DNA of 42,874 nt, taken from the IMG/VR virus record IMGVR_UViG_3300027111_000003; one strand, written 5' to 3'. Position 1 is the stretch's first letter, and the number at the start of each line of letters is the position of its first letter. A model generated the notes under the pieces. That model was not told the DNA's origin and searched no databases. It worked only from the letters and a program-made list of their open reading frames with translations. Positions 31,436 through 42,874 of the stretch are shown here, piece by piece. This DNA comes from a virus. The position numbers and the translations under genes are program-made.

Positions 31436-33163
31436 TTGTCCTACAAGAACGCCTTGAAGTCCTCCACCGCTGGTGTCGAGGCCGATCCTCTGCGATCCGA
31501 TTTCCGCAAGTTTATGTGGCTGGTCTGGAAGTACATCAACCTCCCGGACCCGACCTCCACCCAGTACGACATCGCCCGGTTCCTCCAGACCGGTCCCAAC
31601 AAGATTTGCATCGAGGCTTTCCGAGGTGTCGGCAAGTCCTTCATCACCTCGGCCTTCGTGCTCTGGGTTCTGTACTGCAATCCACAGATGAAGATCATGG
31701 TTGTCTCCGCCTCGAAGAACCGAGCGGACAACTTCGTGACCTTTACGCTCCAGCTCATCAACCTGATCCCCGAGCTCCATCACCTGAAGCCCAAGCCGAG
31801 CCAGCGGTCCTCCCGCGTCGAGTTCGACGTCGGCCCAGCGGAGCCCGATCAGACCCCCTCGGTGTTCGCCAAGGGCATCGATAGCCAGCTTACTGGTGGC
31901 CGTGCAGACATCATCGTCTCCGACGACGTCGAGGTCTGGAACAACTCCCAGACGGTCGCTGCCCGAGACCAGTTGATCGAGAAGACCAAGGAATACTCCG
32001 CTATTCTGAAGCCGCTCGACCACGCCCGGATCATCTACCTCGGGACCCCTCAGACCGAGGACAGCATCTACAACAAGCTGCCTGAGACCTTCACGAAGCG
32101 CATCTGGCCCTCCCAGGTTCCCACGAGGGACGAGAGACCAGGCTACGGCGACGACCTCGCTCCGCTTGTCGAGGCGATGTACGAGGCCGGGAAGTACGGC
32201 TACCCCGTGGACCCCGAGCGGTTCGACATGGACGAGCTCATCGATCGCAGGGCCGAGTATGGCGCTGCTGGCTACCAGCTCCAGTTCATGCTCAACACGA
32301 AGCTCTCCGACGAGGAGCGCTACCCGCTGAAGCTCAAGAATCTCGTGGTCACCCCGGTTCCCCCGGTGAAGGCCCCGTACGACATCCACTGGCTCCCGAA
32401 CCCCGACAGGCTCCTCAAGGACCTCCCGCTCTACGGGATGGCCGGGGACAAGTACTTCTCCGCCGCTGGACACTCTGCCCAGTTCGAGGACTACCAGCAC
32501 CGCGTCATGTCTATCGACCCCTCGGGCCGGGGCAAGGACGAGACCGGCTACGCAGTCGGCTACATGCTCGCCTCGAACATCTGGGTCCCCAAGGCCGGTG
32601 GTCTACAGGGAGGCTACGACACCGAGACCCTCGATGCCCTCGTGGCGATCGCCAAGGTTCACAAGGTGCAGACCATCGTCATCGAAAGCAACTTCGGAGA
32701 CGGTATGTTCGGGAAGCTGCTGGAACCGGTCCTCCTGAGGGCTGGCGTGACAGCCGAGATAGTCGAGGTACGATCTACCTCTATGAAGGAGCATCGCATC
32801 CTGGACGTACTGGAGCCCGTTATATCGCAGCACCGTCTCATCGTTGACCCGAGTGTCATCGAGGACGACCATAACTCGATCCAACAGTACGAGGGCCTCA
32901 TCCGCTCGCACAAGAGCCTCTTCCACCAGATGACCCACATCTGCCGGATGAAGGACGCCCTGCGCCACGATGACCGCCTGGACGCCCTAGCGATGCTCGT
33001 GGGCTACTTCACGGAGCTGATGAACCAGGATGCCCAGAAGACGGCAAACCTCGTCCACGCCGAAGCTATGGCCGCAGAAATAGCCAAGCTGCATCTCAGT
33101 CCCCTGAACAAGCACTTCGTTAACTCGAAGGTAACTTGGGGAGGCAAGAGTGGCCTCATCTAA
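31436..33163 (+). CDS. Terminase large subunit (T7 gp19-like)
   Basis: 575 aa. The N-terminus DFRKFMWLVWKYINLPDPTSTQYDIARFLQTG aligns by eye to T7 gp19. Has Walker-A-like FRGVGKS and nuclease-half acidic motifs. Only TTG 31436 or CTG 31424 precede the conserved N-terminus. Confidence 0.95.
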   Translation: MSYKNALKSSTAGVEADPLRSDFRKFMWLVWKYINLPDPTSTQYDIARFLQTGPNKICIEAFRGVGKSFITSAFVLWVLYCNPQMKIMVVSASKNRADNFVTFTLQLINLIPELHHLKPKPSQRSSRVEFDVGPAEPDQTPSVFAKGIDSQLTGGRADIIVSDDVEVWNNSQTVAARDQLIEKTKEYSAILKPLDHARIIYLGTPQTEDSIYNKLPETFTKRIWPSQVPTRDERPGYGDDLAPLVEAMYEAGKYGYPVDPERFDMDELIDRRAEYGAAGYQLQFMLNTKLSDEERYPLKLKNLVVTPVPPVKAPYDIHWLPNPDRLLKDLPLYGMAGDKYFSAAGHSAQFEDYQHRVMSIDPSGRGKDETGYAVGYMLASNIWVPKAGGLQGGYDTETLDALVAIAKVHKVQTIVIESNFGDGMFGKLLEPVLLRAGVTAEIVEVRSTSMKEHRILDVLEPVISQHRLIVDPSVIEDDHNSIQQYEGLIRSHKSLFHQMTHICRMKDALRHDDRLDALAMLVGYFTELMNQDAQKTANLVHAEAMAAEIAKLHLSPLNKHFVNSKVTWGGKSGLI

Positions 33164-33200
33164 GACAAGGAAAGGGGAGACAAAAGTGAAGACAAGTCTG

Positions 33201-33230
33201 TTGACTTCTTCTACTCTTCTGTGCTACCCT
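33201..33230 (+). promoter_or_regulatory. Host-type promoter candidate P1 (TTGACT-N18-TACCCT)
   Basis: CTGTTGACTTC is shared with P2. First of three TTGACTTC elements. Confidence 0.4.
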
Positions 33231-33347
33231 ATCTAACTTAAAGATAACTTAGAGACATCCTAGGTTATCTTAGGTTTATTACTAGTTAGATAAGAGTAGT
33301 ATAATATCTTAGGTTACCCCAGAGGTTCCCCCGGAGATAACTTAGAG
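33211..33347. repeat. A+T-rich repeat cluster (interrupted inverted repeat and ATCTTAGGTT / GATAACTTAGAG direct repeats)
   Basis: CTACTCTT...ATCTAACT (33211-38) pairs with AGTTAGATAAGAGTAG (33284-99). ATCTTAGGTT occurs at 33267-76 and 33306-15. GATAACTTAGAG occurs at 33243-54 and 33336-47. Confidence 0.85.
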
Positions 33348-33441
33348 TGAACCACGAGTTCCCTCCGGGTTCCTCCGACGGGCTTCCTACTACTCTCTCC
33401 CATACTTGGTTTGATGTATCGATTTACTTTCCCCCAGAGAG

Positions 33442-33470
33442 CCCTCAGGAGTCCCTCAGGGACCCTCTGG
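33442..33470. repeat. Three helically phased copies of CCCTCAGG/CCCTCTGG (10-11 bp spacing)
   Basis: Copies at 33442-49, 33453-60 and 33463-70. This is the reverse complement of the motif in the array at 33850-33941. Confidence 0.85.
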
Positions 33471-33849
33471 GCTACCACCGTAGCCGAGCACCCCCAGAAC
33501 GCTCTCCACGGGCTCCTGTGGGCGATTACGGGGCACATGGAGGTGCACCCGAGGGTTACCCGGGGGAACCCCGCGACCTTTTTCTGAAAAATCTGCATCC
33601 CTGTATCATATATACCCACAACCTACAATCCCCCCGTGGCCCCCTGTAGAGCAACCTGGAGTGCCCTATACGGCACGACCAACCGGCACAGTCTCCACTA
33701 AGTGATTGATTTCATTAGGGTACACATTAGATGTAGTATCGGTTAGGGCCGACGAGGGCGGGGATAACCCCAGGTTTCCCGGGGTTTCCAGCCTTCTATG
33801 TCTATACATATTCAAGCCTCCGTGTCCCCTCCCACATTTTTTCCCTCCA

Positions 33850-33941
33850 GGGCAACCTGAGGGCACCCCGAGGGCAACCGAGAGTCCACCGCTCCCATGT
33901 CATCCGGTTCCCTCCAGGGTCACCGAGGGGTCACCGAGGGG
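33850..33941. repeat. Five 11-bp tandem units GGGYMMCCNGA (3 + 2 copies)
   Basis: GGGCAACCTGA, GGGCACCCCGA and GGGCAACCGAG at 33850-82. GGGTCACCGAG occurs twice at 33917-38. Confidence 0.85.
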
Positions 33942-34112
33942 ACTAACTATCTATCACGTTATGTTACACTCTGTAACAATTCACCTCGTAAAGCTGCTGG
34001 ATAGCAGCGTACATCCAACCAAGCATATATAGCACACGCGCATAACGCACGGTTCCAATCCTATACCGATGGCCCCTCAGCGCAGCCGCTCAAACTTTCT
34101 TCGATAAGCCTG

Positions 34113-34141
34113 TTGACTTCGATAACGGAGATATGCTTATC
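34113..34141 (+). promoter_or_regulatory. Host-type promoter candidate P2 fused to a family-A core (TTGACTTCGATAACGGAGA)
   Basis: The -35 hexamer TTGACT is directly followed by CGATAACGGAGA. A possible -10 (GCTTAT/CTTATC) lies 16-17 nt downstream. Confidence 0.45.
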
Positions 34142-34350
34142 TGTAGTCACGGTGATCGAAAGAGAAACCGGGCAGAGGTCCTCCGGGGTCTCTGAGTTCT
34201 TCGAAATCGATAGATGGTCTCTTTGAGTTACCTCAAGGTCTCCACCGGTTCACTGGGTCTCAACCGCTCAACCTGCTACGGCAAACAGAGTACTGAGAAG
34301 CTGGAAAACACGGCAGGACAACAAACCAAGAGAAAGCCTCAAAATAGGGA

Positions 34351-34378
34351 TTGACTTCGATAACGAAGCGAATACAGT
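34351..34378 (+). promoter_or_regulatory. Host-type promoter candidate P3 (TTGACT-N16-TACAGT) fused to a family-A-like core
   Basis: TTGACTTCGATAACGAAG followed by TACAGT. It has the same -10 flavour as the regulator promoter at 39906. Confidence 0.5.
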
Positions 34379-34707
34379 TAGACACAACAGAGCGGCGGCG
34401 GCAGAGCGCTAAAGCGGATCGGATGGAAACTCCGAGTGTTCTTTGAAAATCAAATAGGGAAGTGTGGACATGTCCAAAGCACGTAGTGCGGAGGGGCGGC
34501 CTGGTAAACCGCAACGGGAAACCGTGTGTCCACTACGATAACCCACGAAATGGCTCCCGCGTCCAAAGCGTCGGAGTAAGTGCAGTGCATACTAGCCACG
34601 GGTCTTAGGTCCATACTAAGTGTCCCGTGTTTCCATTACCTTCGATTGTCTTAGCCAACCGCAGCATTTGCGGTTCGTTAAAGCAATCCAACCGGGGAGC
34701 ACCTCAA

Positions 34708-35816: not shown

Positions 35817-35839
35817 CTAATCTCTCCGATTGTGAAGGG
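35817..35839 (+). promoter_or_regulatory. Degenerate family-A motif (CTAATCTCTCCGATTGTGAAGGG)
   Basis: The upstream half is identical to family A; the downstream half has diverged. Confidence 0.3.
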
Positions 35840-35849
35840 AACCTATACC

Positions 35850-36341
35850 ATGCCTATCACCGCTGACGACCTCGTCCGCCGCGAAGTGTTCTATTGCGTG
35901 TCCTCGCTTGTCTCGACGCTGGCGCAGGGTTCGGGAGCCATAATCGGCGACCGCGACCTATCGTCGCTCACCGAGCAAGCCTTCGAGCTCGCTTGCCCCG
36001 TTGATGATTACGAGCGCGCCGCCCGTCAGGAGGGCTGGAAAACCGCCGACATGACGCCGGGGATGCTCATCAACGAAACCACCTACGGGGAGAGCCAACC
36101 AGCAGAAGCGTTCTACGGCACCTGGGAGGAGCTTTGCGAGCGTTTCGACATCGAACCCTATCAGCGCGAAGTGTTCGAGCACTGGATTGTCTCCGATTGG
36201 CTCGCCGACAAGCTCGCCGAGCACGGGGAGAAGGTGGACAAGGACTTCGCCGGGTTAACCGTGTGGGCTCGCACGACAACCGGTCAGGGCATCGCTTCCG
36301 ATAGCGTCATCGAAGCAATCGTCGCCGACATCAACAAATAA
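35850..36341 (+). CDS. Early protein, hypothetical
   Basis: 163 aa from the ATG at 35850. The conserved-looking C-terminal part is EVFEHWIVSDWLADKLAEHGE...VWARTTTGQGIASDSV. I cannot name the family. Confidence 0.65.
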   Translation: MPITADDLVRREVFYCVSSLVSTLAQGSGAIIGDRDLSSLTEQAFELACPVDDYERAARQEGWKTADMTPGMLINETTYGESQPAEAFYGTWEELCERFDIEPYQREVFEHWIVSDWLADKLAEHGEKVDKDFAGLTVWARTTTGQGIASDSVIEAIVADINK

Positions 36342-36361: not shown

Positions 36362-36550
36362 ATGCCTACGATAACGGAGACAACAGGTCTCACCACAGAA
36401 GCCCTCGAAGCTGTCATCGAGGAGCTCCGCGCCAACGATAGTCCCCTGGTGCCTGGGATAACCGTGAGTAACCAGCGGCGGATACCCGTTGTGGACTTCT
36501 ATTTCCCAAGGCTGTGGGGGGGCCCACCCCGACCTCCTCGTTGTCGATGA
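36362..36550 (+). CDS. Short ORF, possibly the true N-terminus of the following large protein (frame change at a G7 run)
   Basis: Strong SD (GAGGAGAGG) 9 nt upstream of the ATG at 36362. The ORF overlaps the +1 frame ORF, which is open from 36489. G7 lies at 36516-36522. Confidence 0.35.
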   Translation: MPTITETTGLTTEALEAVIEELRANDSPLVPGITVSNQRRIPVVDFYFPRLWGGPPRPPRCR

Positions 36551-36584
36551 CATCGAGGTCCTCGGCCTCCGGGAGGTGTCCCAG

Positions 36585-38216
36585 ATGATGTACGGGGTCT
36601 CAATCCAGCACATCTACGCGGATGTCATCCCCGACGAAATTCCAACCAACATCCCCGTTGATGCAACCAAGGGTCTCACCGCCGTGACCGAAGTAACCGC
36701 AAGTGCACCTATACCGTCCACCGTAGTTACCTCCGAGGGCCGGGTCCGTCCCGCGTTGCCCGAGGGCATCCGGTATTACGACGATACGAACGACCACATC
36801 ACCATCACGGATGACGCGGGGTGCCCTGAGGGTGCCTTCTGTGATGAGAGCACGTCCACGTATGCCTATAAGTATCCCACAGACAGTAATGTGTATCGTG
36901 GGCCGTTGTATAACGGCATAACGGACCCCTCACTGTTTACAGGCGGCCAGCGCCTCCACATCCTGCGGCATCCGACACACGCCACGTATTTTAGGAGCGG
37001 GGATGACGACCACCCGATGTTGTTCTCCTCCAAGGATAACGGCATGAACCCGTGGCACGGACACTCGTGGTACTCCACCCATTGGCTGCGCTGGATTGAA
37101 CACATGCCAGCCCCATCCAAGGATCACCCTGGGCTCCTGATGTACTTTCAGACCCCTACGAAACGCGCTCGCAACATTCGCACCCCCATCAAGCCCGGGA
37201 AATACCTCAAGAAATACTTCGGCGACATTCTCGGCGAAGAGGAAATCAACGACCTCGCGGTCAAGTGGTCCAACATGGCCAGCCCCGCGAAACTCTCGGT
37301 CACCCAGGATGCCGACGAGATCGAGAGGGTCTATAAGGGCAAGCACAACGGCTCGTGCATGCACTTCGCTCATGACAGCTACGATGGCAATCAGCACCCG
37401 GCTCGTGCATATGCTGGCCCGGACCTCGCCACGGCGTACATCGGGGCGCTGGACTGCGCGGACGCACGTTGCCTCGTGTGGCCCGAGAAGAAACTCTATT
37501 ACCCGAAGTTCTACGGGGACTATCGCCGCATGGAAGATGCCCTCCAGGACGCCGGGTACACCCGTGGTCGCGAGGAGGACTTCATTGGCGCTCGCATCCA
37601 ACGCCTCCCGTACAATAAGACCTTTGTGGTCCCCTACCTCGATGTCGGCGGCTGTGTCGAAGACAACGGGGAGTATCTGGTGATTTCCTATGACGGTATT
37701 AACTGCCGGGAAACCGAGGGCCTTGCCCATACCGGACGGACTTGCGCCTATGATGGGGAACGCTACCCCGCAGACGAGATGACCTACGTACAAGATTACG
37801 GATGGGTGGCGAACGAAAACCTACACTCGTGCGGGGAGTTCTTCGAGTGCTCTGTGGTGGGTGATTGGTTCTGCGAACGTGATCGTCGGGACAGTCCCGA
37901 GGATTACCCGGTGTCCAGCGCAGCAGTGGTATACCATTCCCGCCAGATATTCTACTGCGATGCTACCGAAATGTACTACCCATTGAACATCTTCAATCCG
38001 GTTCAGATGGCTAACGGGGAAACTTGGGAGCAGGACTACTTCAATGACCACGGGGTGACCTGTGATTTCTCCAGAGATAACTACCCGTCCTCTCAGGTCA
38101 TCTACCTTGACAACGGCAAGGTGGTCGCCGACGACCTGATTGACCTGGATAACCCCGAGTATCTGGCTTTTGCTGGCCTGGATGTCTCCGTTATCGAAGA
38201 GGTAGAGGCGGCTTAA
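36585..38216 (+). CDS. Large Cys/aromatic-rich early protein, unknown function
   Basis: 543 aa from the ATG at 36585 (SD GGGAGG). Has many Cys, Trp and Tyr and a GSCMHF motif. I recall no catalytic signature for it. Confidence 0.75.
   Translation: MMYGVSIQHIYADVIPDEIPTNIPVDATKGLTAVTEVTASAPIPSTVVTSEGRVRPALPEGIRYYDDTNDHITITDDAGCPEGAFCDESTSTYAYKYPTDSNVYRGPLYNGITDPSLFTGGQRLHILRHPTHATYFRSGDDDHPMLFSSKDNGMNPWHGHSWYSTHWLRWIEHMPAPSKDHPGLLMYFQTPTKRARNIRTPIKPGKYLKKYFGDILGEEEINDLAVKWSNMASPAKLSVTQDADEIERVYKGKHNGSCMHFAHDSYDGNQHPARAYAGPDLATAYIGALDCADARCLVWPEKKLYYPKFYGDYRRMEDALQDAGYTRGREEDFIGARIQRLPYNKTFVVPYLDVGGCVEDNGEYLVISYDGINCRETEGLAHTGRTCAYDGERYPADEMTYVQDYGWVANENLHSCGEFFECSVVGDWFCERDRRDSPEDYPVSSAAVVYHSRQIFYCDATEMYYPLNIFNPVQMANGETWEQDYFNDHGVTCDFSRDNYPSSQVIYLDNGKVVADDLIDLDNPEYLAFAGLDVSVIEEVEAA
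38184..38202 (-). promoter_or_regulatory. Inverted copy of the family-A core (CTCTTCGATAACGGAGAC on the minus strand)
   Basis: The exact 11-mer CGATAACGGAG lies on the minus strand, inside the 3' end of the 36585..38216 CDS. Confidence 0.35.
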
Positions 38217-38259
38217 CGTCGCCTCCCTCAAACCTATACCAAACTTAGAGGAGGCCGAC

Positions 38260-39270
38260 GTGGCCAAACTGACCGCCGACGAAAAAACGATCCTCGACAT
38301 GTTCCAATACATGCGTCCCTCGGGGACACCTATGGAACAAGTCTTCATCGATCGTTTCCTGACGCCCCTGGGGTTCACCCGAGACCCCTTCCGTAATCTC
38401 GTCCTGACCGTGGGCGACCGGCCTAACATCCTGTGGTCCTCGCATATGGACACCGTCCATCGGGAGGAGGGCATCCAGCCCCTCCACTATGACGGGGAGT
38501 TCCTGGAGATCGGCAAGAAGGCCAAATCAAGTACCTGCCTCGGCGCTGACGACACGGCGGGTATCTGGATTATGACCGAAATGGTCAAGGCGGGTGTCCC
38601 CGGGGTCTACGTCATTCACCACGGGGAGGAGATCGGTTGCAAGGGGTCTCGGGCACTCGCCAAGGGAAACCCCGAGTTCTTCGAGGGCATTGATGCGGCC
38701 ATCGCGTTTGACCGGATGGGATACAACAGTGTCATCACTCACCAGATGGGAGCTCGAACCGCCTCGGATGCCTTCTCGGCCAGTTTCGCGGATGCCCTCG
38801 ATGATGCCCTGGGGATAGACGCGGGGTTCAAGGCGGATGACGGAGGAGCCTACACCGATACAAACGAGTACGCGGACATCGTCTCCGAGTGCACGAATAT
38901 CTCGGTTGGCTATCACAGTCAGCATAGCCGCAACGAAAACCAGCACGTTCCCTTCCTGATCGCCATGCGCAACGCGATGGTACGGATGGACCTCTCGGCC
39001 CTCGTCTTCGCCAGGGACCCCTCTGTGGTCGATTACGCGGGGTCCTACGGGTTCTACCGGGGCTACAAGTCCCTCTTCGATGACGACCCCTGGGATGACC
39101 CGAACAACTACGTCATCCCGGACAGGCGCTCGGACGATAGCATCGAGGAGGTCATCAAGGCGTACCCGGAGATCGTCGCGGCGATCCTCCACTCCTACGG
39201 GTTAACCCGGACGATGCTCCTCGATGAGATCGCCGAGGTCTACGGGGAGGAGGCGCTGATTGCAAACTGA
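38260..39270 (+). CDS. M28/M20-type zinc metallopeptidase-like protein
   Basis: 336 aa. GTG start 6 nt after GAGGAGG. The metal-ligand pattern SHMDTVH, LGADDTAG, HHGEEIGCKGS, GGAYTDTNEY and GYHSQHSRNE is typical of co-catalytic zinc aminopeptidases. Confidence 0.75.
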   Translation: MAKLTADEKTILDMFQYMRPSGTPMEQVFIDRFLTPLGFTRDPFRNLVLTVGDRPNILWSSHMDTVHREEGIQPLHYDGEFLEIGKKAKSSTCLGADDTAGIWIMTEMVKAGVPGVYVIHHGEEIGCKGSRALAKGNPEFFEGIDAAIAFDRMGYNSVITHQMGARTASDAFSASFADALDDALGIDAGFKADDGGAYTDTNEYADIVSECTNISVGYHSQHSRNENQHVPFLIAMRNAMVRMDLSALVFARDPSVVDYAGSYGFYRGYKSLFDDDPWDDPNNYVIPDRRSDDSIEEVIKAYPEIVAAILHSYGLTRTMLLDEIAEVYGEEALIAN

Positions 39271-39965: not shown

Positions 39966-40343
39966 ATGGGGACCGAGAGAGACACGATTGGGCGGTTAAT
40001 TAACGCCTTGCGACTGTTCAACAGGATGGACACAAAGATGCAGGTGTCTACCATCCTTACCTTCTTAGAAGTTGCAGCCGCAGACCTGGACAAGCGAGAC
40101 CTTTCAATGAGGGAACTGGAAAAACGCATCGGGTTCACCTCGGGGGTCGCCTCCAGGAACGCCTACTACTGGGGCGAGGGTACAAAGGAAATGCGCGGAG
40201 GTCGGCAGTTGATCGACGTGCGAATGAGTCGTCAAGACCACCGACTGAGAGATTTGGTTCTAACCAACAAGGGAAGGGCCTTCCTCCACACTCTGATAGG
40301 AGAGGACAATGGCGCGGCAACGCGGGAAGAAGTACCAGGCTGA
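39966..40343 (+). CDS. MarR-type winged-helix transcriptional regulator (candidate lysogeny repressor)
   Basis: 125 aa. LSMRELEKRIGFTSGVASRNAYYW ... DHRLRDLVLTNKGRAFL fits the MarR wHTH-plus-wing pattern. It overlaps the integrase start by 35 nt. Confidence 0.65.
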   Translation: MGTERDTIGRLINALRLFNRMDTKMQVSTILTFLEVAAADLDKRDLSMRELEKRIGFTSGVASRNAYYWGEGTKEMRGGRQLIDVRMSRQDHRLRDLVLTNKGRAFLHTLIGEDNGAATREEVPG

Positions 40344-41277
40344 CGTCGTAATCGACGGGGTTCGTAAGCGCCCCACCTTTGCGACGTTGGCAGAAGCAGA
40401 AGCCTATGAACGGGCTATTGCAAACGGGCTCCCCGCCGCCGGGGTGTCTACCTTCAAGAAGTTCCACGAGACCCACTTCGAGTTCATCTGGGGCGACAAC
40501 AATGCCCCCGAGGCAACTCAGTTCAACCTGGGCTCCCTGGACAAGTTCATTCCAGCCGACAAGCCGATCGCCGAGATCACCGCCCCTTACATCATCGACC
40601 TCGTGTCGCGGATGAAGAAAACGGGTATCTCCAATGCGACGATCAATCGCCGCTTATCGGCCTTGTCGAAACTCCTGAAACACGCGGAGAAACTCGAACT
40701 CACCCGGAAGCCCCCGATAGGTTTCCTGCGGGAGAACGAGGGGCGCGACCGCGTCCTATCCCGTGTCGAGGAGCAGAAGATGTTCCAGTTCTTCGACCAC
40801 ATGGGGATGACCCTCTCGGGGGCCATCGTGCGGTTCCTCCTGTACACCGGGTGTCGCCTCGGGGAGGTCTTCACGCTCGACCGGGACCGAGTGAGCGACG
40901 GACGGGTGACCTTCCACTACACCGTTACCAAGACGAGCAAGACGCGGCTGGTGCCCCTGATAGGCCCCGCGAAGGACGCCTGGACCCGCGTGTGCGGCAT
41001 GACGAACAACCCGTATCCCTTCGCGGAGATGCCGAGGGATACTTTCAGGGACCACTGGAACCGCTTCCGGGAGCACATGGATGCCCTGGACGATCCCCAG
41101 TTCGTCCCTCACATGCTGCGGCACACATGCGCCTCGCGGCTTGTCTCGAAGGGCGTCCCGTTGCCCCAGGTCATGCTGTGGATGGGACACCGGAATATTC
41201 AAACGACCATGCGGTATTCCCATCTGGCCCCGAAGGACCTCGATGGTGCCGCAAAGGCGCTCCTGGAGGATGCGTGA
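40309..41277 (+). CDS. int: Tyrosine recombinase / phage integrase
   Basis: 322 aa. Has Arg I (YTGCRLGE), H-x-x-R (HMLRHTCASRL) and a catalytic Tyr context (GHRNIQTTMRYSHL). Confidence 0.95.
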   Translation: MARQRGKKYQADVVIDGVRKRPTFATLAEAEAYERAIANGLPAAGVSTFKKFHETHFEFIWGDNNAPEATQFNLGSLDKFIPADKPIAEITAPYIIDLVSRMKKTGISNATINRRLSALSKLLKHAEKLELTRKPPIGFLRENEGRDRVLSRVEEQKMFQFFDHMGMTLSGAIVRFLLYTGCRLGEVFTLDRDRVSDGRVTFHYTVTKTSKTRLVPLIGPAKDAWTRVCGMTNNPYPFAEMPRDTFRDHWNRFREHMDALDDPQFVPHMLRHTCASRLVSKGVPLPQVMLWMGHRNIQTTMRYSHLAPKDLDGAAKALLEDA

Positions 41278-42565: not shown

Positions 42566-42650
42566 GCGGGTGTGGCGGAATTGGCAGACGCACTTGGTTT
42601 AGGTCCAAGCGCCGCAAGGCGTGGGGGTTCAAGTCCCTCCATCCGCACCA
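42566..42650 (+). tRNA. tRNA-Leu (anticodon UAG), type II with long variable arm, CCA encoded
   Basis: Manual cloverleaf. Acceptor stem GCGGGTG/CATCCGC. Anticodon stem CTTGG/CCAAG with loop TTTAGGT. Variable arm GCC-GCAA-GGC. T arm GGGGG-TTCAAGT-CCCTC. A73 followed by CCA. Confidence 0.9.
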
Positions 42651-42655
42651 AAATT

Positions 42656-42698
42656 CTTGTGCCAACGCTGTGCCAAACGGTGCCAGACACGGCACAAG
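42656..42698. repeat. Phased GTGCCA repeats (3 direct, 1 inverted) just 3' of the tRNA: candidate attP arm-type protein-binding sites
   Basis: GTGCCA starts at 42659, 42670 and 42680 (11- and 10-bp spacing). CTTGTGCC (42656-63) is inverted with respect to GGCACAAG (42691-98). Confidence 0.6.
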
Positions 42699-42747
42699 GT
42701 ATCGCCGGGAACCCCTGGAAACCCTGAGTTTCTTGGTGTTCTCAATT

Positions 42748-42874
42748 GATTTAGGTTCTTCCGTGTTTTCTCTCCGGTAAAGAAGACAATAAACTCAAGG
42801 TCCTAGCAAACCTTGGGTTTTTCTTTGCCCTAAATATCTTCTGTATCGGAGAGACTGCGATAGCGGAGTGCCAC
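42748..42874. repeat. Terminal direct repeat, copy 2 (identical to 1..127)
   Basis: Exact duplicate of the first 127 bases. Confidence 0.95.

Follow-up and report, generated by a model that had tools for sequence, protein, structure and literature searches.

The 42,874-nucleotide stretch of viral DNA analysed here (IMG/VR virus record IMGVR_UViG_3300027111_000003), which we refer to in its full length as the window, carries side by side on its plus strand the genes for a 543-residue protein (gene 1) and a 336-residue zinc peptidase (gene 2). These two genes are an obligate cassette, a genuine functional pair, and the copy in the window is an ordinary representative of a module that is widespread among phages, catalogued, and functionally unexplained. 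The peptidase has the residue set and predicted fold of a clan-MH exopeptidase, and its large partner belongs to a family that has so far escaped the domain databases. Our tentative proposal is that the pair might be a two-subunit device for processing protein termini during host takeover.

A first-pass annotation of this DNA had already described the two proteins, and both open reading frames (ORFs) exist on the plus strand, at 36585-38216 and 38260-39270, with strong homologues (down to E = 1e-186 for gene 1 and E = 1e-157 for gene 2). They are also, as it said, the two largest ORFs of the early region, the third being a 322-residue integrase. The features of the pair are as follows.

36585-38216, plus strand: gene 1, 543 residues from ATG 36585; multi-domain; PHROG 13313/6980, function unknown
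Gene 1 residues 1-40: predicted disordered N-terminus
36717-36974, plus strand: N-terminal beta-rich domain, residues ~45-130, variable between homologues (from model secondary structure and alignment)
37032-37700, plus strand: conserved core, residues 150-372 (~220 residues)
37350-37367, plus strand: GSCMHF motif, residues 256-261, whose Ser-Cys-Met is conserved more strongly than any other element in the family
37707-38144, plus strand: putative LIM-like zinc-ribbon array, residues 375-520 (weak Foldseek and Pfam LIM matches)
38145-38213, plus strand: flexible acidic tail, residues 521-543, ending ...VIEEVEAA; low predicted local distance difference test (pLDDT) score at the C-terminal end
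38249-38255, plus strand: GAGGAGG ribosome-binding site of gene 2, intergenic
38260-39270, plus strand: gene 2, 336 residues from GTG 38260; predicted clan-MH binuclear-zinc exopeptidase; PHROG 4191, Pfam M28
38260-39033, plus strand: catalytic domain, residues 1-258, with H62, D64, D97, E123, E124, D151 and H222
39043-39132, plus strand: disordered linker, residues 262-291 (pLDDT < 50)
39133-39267, plus strand: small C-terminal helical domain, residues 292-336, with conserved P303, L310 and G314

Linkage and distribution of the pair

Gene 2 begins 44 nucleotides (nt) after gene 1 in the window, on the same strand, which is the layout of a cassette. The gene 1 core finds 74 loci in IMG/VR, 70 of which can be evaluated downstream; in 66/70 the gene immediately downstream, in the same orientation, is the peptidase, with a gap from the end of the gene 1 ORF to the first profile-matched peptidase residue that is mostly -25 to +170 nt, and the two genes often overlap. 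When loci are found by the peptidase instead, 73 are evaluable and the gene 1 core is present in 70 (65 directly upstream, 5 divergent), while one of the three core-less loci turns out to hold a divergent gene 1 member that the profile had missed (the 71st). The partner is present in ~95% of evaluable viral loci, whichever gene one starts from, and the co-occurrence in relatives on which the first-pass pairing of the two genes depended is borne out. Clustering of all neighbouring ORFs yields no third conserved partner across these loci.

The pair is adjacent in Rhizobium phage Pasto, in the 121-kb Bradyrhizobium phage BDU-MI-1, in Klebsiella phage SU503 and in Pectobacterium phage PP90. The Pasto orthologues (MT708545) are gp004, annotated as hypothetical and 41% identical to gene 1 across its conserved part, and gp005, annotated as a zinc peptidase and 53.5% identical to gene 2. 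They occupy the same order and early context as in the window, with a helix-turn-helix (HTH) regulator, an integrase, tRNA-Leu and RNA polymerase downstream, and the gene 1 counterpart likewise ends in ...EAA; immediately upstream, however, Pasto has an ArdA-like gene and the window an unrelated 169-residue ORF. The Klebsiella Drulisvirus pair KP34p10/p11 (SU503 gp11/gp12) and the Pectobacterium Phimunavirus pair PhiM1_09/10 (PP90 gp08/gp09) represent the same two families in the same order, and here, too, gene 1 ends in AA, although identity to the window proteins is only 20-35%. Those phages are strictly lytic and, unlike in the window, their pair adjoins primase and helicase genes. A third small gene, conserved there but absent from the window, follows the peptidase in SU503 (gp13) and PP90 (gp10). 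It encodes ~141-155 residues (L003 7220-7687, L004 4962-5387), starts MSKFKVGD... and has no family match.

Because the gene 1 core is rare in species-representative bacterial genomes (8 loci, mostly Mesorhizobium and other Alphaproteobacteria), the module is essentially viral. By tblastn, the peptidase occurs in 366/50,697 GenBank phage records, of which 230 are from Klebsiella, 51 from Pectobacterium, 42 from Vibrio and the remainder from others. The conserved early genes of KP34-like and PhiM1-like phages have been described as hypothetical-peptidase-hypothetical (KP34p10-p12; PhiM1_09-11), with a “putative peptidase” the only one of them to be named (PMC4411677, PMC6115819). In view of these listings and of the 366 records, the earlier remark that a peptidase of this kind is unusual in the early region of a podovirus does not hold for several lineages of the Autographiviridae, in which the PHROG 4191 peptidase is a conserved early gene. 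A literature search for a described function of the pair found none. The further suggestion that this part of the window hides an undescribed system may hold for the module as a whole, but the window's own copy shows nothing special.

The zinc peptidase

Gene 2 matches PHROG 4191 (“peptidase”) at E = 1.1e-69, with residues 7-255 on profile positions 4-253 of 342, and scores 24.1 bits (E = 3.4e-5) against Pfam Peptidase_M28 (PF04389), above the gathering cut-off of 21.3; many of its homologues carry a precomputed PF04389 match. Scores for other clan members fall below their cut-offs, namely 20.7 bits against 23.2 for the M42 family (PF05343), whose inserted domain is also absent from the model, 13.1 against 24.6 for M20 (PF01546), and 35 against 274 for the PepT-like TIGR01883. 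A search of PDB sequences returns a PepT-like match at E = 2e-5.

The complete co-catalytic zinc ligand pattern that the first-pass annotation had read in this protein survives alignment. The seven residues H62, D64, D97, E123, E124, D151 and H222 are invariant in 62 homologues and equally so in 7 distant phage homologues, from an alignment with Pasto, BDU-MI-1, Klebsiella SU503, Pectobacterium PP90, a low-GC (guanine plus cytosine) marine phage and Thermus phage P23-45 gp56. In the AlphaFold2 model (pLDDT 89.6) they belong to a single continuous catalytic domain. Foldseek ranks M42 TET, PepT, CPG2 and DapE enzymes best (E = 1e-11 to 1e-8), and, of 219 PDB matches at E <= 1e-3, those listed are all clan MH or glutaminyl cyclase, which is related in fold. 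Gene 2 shares its alpha/beta fold and complete zinc set (HxD, D, EE, D, H) with M28, M42 TET and M20 PepT/CPG2/DapE, at a sequence identity to the solved structures of only 13-20%. M42 and M20 enzymes possess a separate lid or dimerisation domain, the M42 insert being PDZ-like. The gene 2 model has no such domain, and features instead the disordered linker and the small C-terminal helical domain, the latter a candidate docking module.

No signal-like hydrophobic stretch is visible in the N-terminal sequence of gene 2, and the enzyme is therefore probably cytoplasmic. By residue set and modelled fold, it is a clan-MH hydrolase whose catalytic residues are intact. Substrates of the clan are either free termini or small amides.

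The large partner protein

Public gene callers predict the identical 543-residue gene 1 protein (P0001, 100% identical), and a GGAGG lies 8 nt upstream of its ATG at 36585; the frame is also open from an alternative TTG at 36489 (575 residues). The protein had been called rich in Cys, Trp and Tyr, which is true in part (Tyr 7.4%, Cys 2.4%, Trp 1.8%), and the GSCMHF motif singled out at the same time is indeed present. This motif falls within the conserved core, where C258, M259 and D353 are invariant and S257, H271, P272, D280, R295, W299, P300, K302, Y310, G311, D312 and R337 nearly so. Such conservation suggests that the core is probably a catalytic or ligand-binding centre.

That gene 1 bears no nameable signature, as first reported, is confirmed by wider searches. 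Pfam, NCBIfam, PADLOC and PDB sequences return nothing, for single sequences as well as for an 80-member profile. The full AlphaFold2 model (mean pLDDT 88.4) matches no PDB chain at E <= 1e-3 in Foldseek. PHROG yields just two families, 13313 and 6980, each of function unknown. Against BFVD, on the other hand, the model finds 24 phage proteins at E <= 1e-3, every named one an “Uncharacterized protein”, from Klebsiella KpV48, Shigella Buco, Pectobacterium Nobby, Vibrio DE17, a Pseudomonas phage, Caulobacter Lullwater and marine phages. A core-only profile collects 4,481 clusters at 50% identity (E <= 1e-3) among 1.84 billion representative proteins, so that the family is both large and uncatalogued, missing as it is from Pfam and NCBIfam. 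A Pfam scan of 29 unusually long family members detects no fused domains.

The C-terminal region of gene 1 homologues features repeated CxxC...CxxC units like those of LIM and other binuclear treble-clef zinc fingers, with matches that lie below significance. LIM domains are the best Foldseek matches of the full model in PDB (E = 0.09-0.3), and Pfam LIM matches occur in 8/80 family members (best 0.003), the window protein not among them; tblastn of a Cys-rich zinc-ribbon segment against phages gives no match. A LIM domain is defined by two zinc fingers with eight conserved Cys/His/Asp ligands; the window protein has mostly single ligands where its homologues have CxxC pairs. Weaker, partial BFVD matches (~120-130 aligned columns, 3.5-4.3 Å) are to phage proteins named “Amidoligase enzyme” and “LIM domain containing protein”, and the part that these have in common with gene 1 would be the zinc-ribbon region.

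Foldseek also returns many weak matches to GNAT-fold transferases (probability 0.2-0.5; the best in PDB at E = 0.34, probability 0.51) and, lower in rank, to arginyl-tRNA protein transferase (ATE1) and to an aminoacyl-tRNA-dependent peptide synthase. The GNAT cofactor motif Q/RxxGxG/A does not occur in gene 1, the nearest approach, K-F-Y-G-D-Y, lacking the final small residue. The GNAT, ATE1 and LIM resemblances are leads only. Several catalytic schemes were considered by eye and set aside: a PD-(D/E)xK nuclease, as the Glu of “WPEKK” is not conserved; a papain- or transglutaminase-type Cys-His-Asp triad, as the Cys does not sit at the start of a helix and the spacing does not fit; ADP-ribosyltransferase R-S-E or H-Y-E, again for reasons of spacing; and the sortase, E2 and Ada motifs.

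The C-terminal tail of gene 1

The last two residues of gene 1, Ala-Ala, resemble the end of the ssrA degradation tag. Family-wide figures for this tail refer to a gene 1 set of 208 proteins (P0001-P0080 and P0201-P0328) and a peptidase set of 120 (P0081-P0200). Nearly half of the gene 1 family (103/208, the window protein included) ends in AA, as do all four named phage orthologues, compared with 3/52 of the other plus-strand ORFs of the window. At position -3, the 103 AA-ending members most often have E (34), L (30) or V (15), 79 in total. The peptidase family ends in AA in 48/120 cases (40%), often as ...YGVxxAA, the window peptidase ending in ...EALIAN; where a peptidase does end in AA, so does its partner in 9/10. 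The ending is confined to lineages with a GC content of at least 0.48.

In the ssrA tag and in Caulobacter CtrA, recognition by ClpX is determined by a C-terminal (L/V/E)-A-A. The gene 1 tail is like these degrons in presenting a free C-terminus of that form on a flexible tail. It differs from them in its residue at position -3, which in the window is E and not L or V; in a degron of the LAA class, a hydrophobic residue precedes the AA. A search of related loci for a transfer-messenger RNA gene, with which the host ssrA tag could have been compared, found none. One could also ask whether an acidic tail ending in AA is simply a by-product of the downstream ribosome-binding site. This is rejected for the window, where the GAGGAGG of gene 2 lies between the two genes, as well as for the majority of loci with an AA end, in which the intergenic gaps are positive; such a constraint may contribute to the EEEE tails of overlapping low-GC marine genes. 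A conserved free C-terminus implies recognition by something, and besides ClpX the partner exopeptidase is the other candidate reader.

A second motif is found in part of the family. A beta-clamp-binding-like QLxLxL or QLxLF occurs in the last 20 residues of 38/208 gene 1 members (18%) and in 1/120 peptidase tails. Such motifs (e.g., QLSLPL, QLELDL) end 2-6 residues from the C-terminus and are far above shuffled and body-of-protein controls; by the strict clamp consensus there are 16 tails, where 0.17 would be expected from shuffled tails. The motif (QL[SD]LF / QLxLx[LF]) is absent from the gene 1 tail of the window.

A proposed mechanism and its alternatives

We favor, at a probability of roughly 0.3, a two-subunit device that would serve host takeover by processing the termini of proteins, and whose large subunit would have its lifetime limited by an ssrA-like tail. 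The gene 1 and gene 2 proteins would act together, probably as a complex, with the zinc-ribbon array and N-terminal domain of gene 1 supplying target recognition and its core perhaps adding a second chemical step. Inside the infected cell, the exopeptidase would then trim a free end of a protein or peptide. The ...EAA end would render the gene 1 protein a ClpXP substrate, and hence its activity short-lived. Such a cassette would be an early-acting takeover device analogous in position and logic to the gp0.7 kinase (T7K) of T7, an early-region enzyme whose catalytic and targeting parts broadly modify host proteins (PMC13645617). This is a working analogy only, as gp0.7 has no homology to the pair, phosphorylates rather than hydrolyzing termini, and is one polypeptide rather than two. 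The ClpS adaptors encoded by jumbo phages are likewise predicted to feed host proteolysis (PMC7824862).

Several observations weigh against this proposal. The ...EAA end matches the ClpX signal less well than ...LAA would, and the low-GC marine members of the gene 1 family have tails in EEEE or ELELD[AVI] in place of AA. Most of the ribbon zinc ligands of the window protein are degenerate, with CxxC reduced to a single Cys, His or Asp. As no fold has been assigned to the core, its “second catalytic centre” is read only from residue conservation. Clan-MH enzymes often act on small amides and not on proteins. A distant peptidase homologue in Thermus phage P23-45 has no large partner gene alongside; this protein, gp56 (L164 4441-5325, annotated as a “metal-dependent hydrolase”), keeps all of the catalytic residues, and the peptidase can thus occur alone in remote lineages.

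A bolder form of the same idea, which we consider improbable, sees in the pair a new kind of takeover machine. Its targeting subunit would have a catalytic fold of a new type, centred on Cys, His, Asp and Arg, and would act with the binuclear-zinc exopeptidase to rewrite host protein termini, for instance so as to make or remove degrons or to put parts of the replisome out of action. The tail of the targeting subunit would plug into host hubs, docking on ClpX via ...AA and, in some lineages, on the beta sliding clamp via QLxLxL. The clamp motif has also suggested a replisome-directed role, in which the gene 1 tail docks on the host clamp so as to block or redirect replication and the peptidase acts on a replisome component. 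The enrichment of the motif in gene 1 tails over peptidase tails speaks for this, as does the position of the pair just upstream of primase and helicase genes in KP34-like and PhiM1-like phages, and there is a precedent in MuC of phage Mu, which uses a clamp-binding motif (PMC12867686). Yet the motif is found in only 18% of the family and is missing from the window protein and its closest relatives, whose tail reads ...FAGLDVSVIEEVEAA, and we regard a replisome-directed role as very doubtful.

A metabolic role deserves rather more consideration, although it, too, is unlikely. The gene 1 core would here make or bind an amide-linked compound or short peptide, with amidoligase- or transferase-like logic, and gene 2 would hydrolyze that compound, or else a host-derived N-acyl amino acid or dipeptide, for precursor supply or signal destruction. 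Among the solved structures nearest to gene 2 are those of DapE, CPG2, acetylornithine deacetylase and PahZ2, enzymes whose substrates are small amides; gene 1 has its many weak GNAT-fold matches, together with those to an ATE1-type enzyme and a peptide synthase, and the BFVD “Amidoligase enzyme” proteins match part of its model. The status of the pair as core genes in several genera would suit metabolism as well (PMC4411677, PMC6115819). However, all of the GNAT and transferase matches are non-significant (E >= 0.3), Pfam is empty, no acetyl-CoA or ATP-binding motif is recognised in gene 1, and a zinc-ribbon array with a conserved free tail suggests macromolecular partners rather than metabolites.

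The anti-defence function put forward in the first-pass annotation, by which the pair would inactivate a host immune protein or degrade a peptide immune signal, strikes us as still less probable. The pair does lie in the early region, its Pasto counterpart is directly downstream of an ArdA-like anti-restriction gene, and the catalytic residues of gene 2 are intact. On the other hand, neither gene matches PADLOC or any named anti-defence family, there is no similarity to a known anti-defence protein, and the ORF upstream of the pair in the window is not ArdA-like. Moreover, anti-defence genes are usually patchy accessories, whereas this pair belongs to the conserved core of entire genera and of widely differing kinds of phage, which argues against a narrow anti-defence role and is more typical of host takeover or housekeeping. 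To our knowledge, no defence system is recognised as needing an exopeptidase for its defeat. At the far end of the scale is the view that the genes are independent neighbours, or the peptidase a catalytically dead scaffold. Its one point of support is the solitary Thermus P23-45 homologue; it is largely refuted by adjacency in ~95% of loci, seen from either gene and across unrelated phage backbones, and by the invariance of every metal and catalytic residue.

Phage and genomic setting

Other features of the window that bear on the surroundings of the pair are listed here.

35832-36341: 169-residue ORF directly upstream of the pair, at the position of the Pasto ArdA-like gene
36362-36550, plus strand: 62-residue ORF in another frame than gene 1, with its own GAGGAG ribosome-binding site
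36516-36522, plus strand: G7 homopolymer; loss of one G would join the frame of the 62-residue ORF to that of gene 1
39966-40343: HTH regulator, end of the early block
40309-41277: tyrosine integrase, 322 residues, end of the early block
42566-42650: tRNA-Leu gene, end of the early block

A T7-type RNA polymerase is encoded at 424-2913 (PHROG 414, E = 4e-224). The 575-residue plus-strand ORF at 31436-33163, which ends a long run of plus-strand genes, is read as the T7-type terminase large subunit; a related locus has a homologue of it with a match to the T7 terminase domain in Pfam. Between this gene and the first early ORF lie ~1.4 kb (33200-34600) devoid of convincing genes, where GC is lower (0.51-0.53) and only short overlapping ORFs are seen on both strands. 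By analogy with Pasto, this is probably the genome-end, terminal-repeat and early-promoter region. Downstream of it comes a block of small and medium plus-strand ORFs that includes the pair.

The linear order in Pasto, a member of the Autographiviridae, is terminal repeat, early genes, gp004, the zinc peptidase gp005, HTH, integrase, tRNA-Leu and RNA polymerase. Judged by its gene order, which matches this, the window is a temperate T7-type phage of the Pasto kind, in circularly permuted form. In the linear genome, the region of the pair would lie upstream of RNA polymerase, in agreement with the early position first ascribed to it; the word “early” is thus used by synteny with Pasto. The same phage (99.5% identical) is found as ~43 kb contigs and also integrated in a 94-kb bacterial contig beside a trigger-factor gene (tig), with the junction at window position 42759 (window 42566-42759, L079 8307-8500 and beyond). 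Past this junction there is an apparent 3' end of a host tRNA gene, followed by tig.

The first-pass annotation began the region at 36362, which is the ATG of the separate 62-residue ORF and not the start of gene 1. The G7 run is identical in all 5 sequences compared (the window and 4 independent assemblies), and a frameshift caused by an assembly error is therefore rejected; frameshifting or slippage at G7 between the two ORFs is possible. The 62-residue ORF has a weak match to the N-terminus of the 601-residue homologue P0003 (29% over 52 residues, E = 0.01 in a 7-sequence search), and may be a small gene in its own right, or else a remnant or copy of the N-terminal end of gene 1. The contexts of the two start sites, GAGGTGTGTCCGAATG and GAGGTGTCCCAGATG, are alike, which suggests a partial duplication.

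ArdA homology of the 169-residue ORF directly upstream of the pair was considered and rejected, as neither a Pfam scan nor comparison with Pasto ArdA shows any similarity; its sole match is a weak one to PHROG 26364 (function unknown). In a scan of the early region, promoter-like sites are no commoner than in shuffled sequence, and terminator-like sites are in excess, an excess that is uninformative about the pair. Long antisense ORFs (217-287 residues) run across both genes on the minus strand, at 36930-37793, 37821-38474 and 38527-39192. Equivalent ORFs recur and cluster together in related GC-rich loci, and they are read as by-products of coding-strand composition rather than as genes.

Significance

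The copy in the window adds little beyond the family-wide features; it is the module itself that deserves experiments. The pair belongs to a small number of early-gene sets that are conserved across the podophages of Klebsiella (Drulisvirus), Pectobacterium (Phimunavirus), Vibrio, Shigella, Pseudomonas and Caulobacter, the temperate T7-like phages of rhizobia and many marine phages. Neither gene has an assigned role. Drulisvirus includes candidates for phage therapy. The gene 1 family, with at least 4,481 clusters outside Pfam and NCBIfam, offers a confident predicted structure that has no solved neighbour, and the motifs of its tail yield testable ClpXP and sliding-clamp hypotheses. A role for an intact exopeptidase and its obligate partner would fill a gap in our picture of host takeover by Autographiviridae other than T7. 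Were the pair truly a machine that rewrites host protein termini, it would represent a general, previously unseen mechanism of early infection, because it is a core feature of Klebsiella Drulisvirus and of many other podophages.

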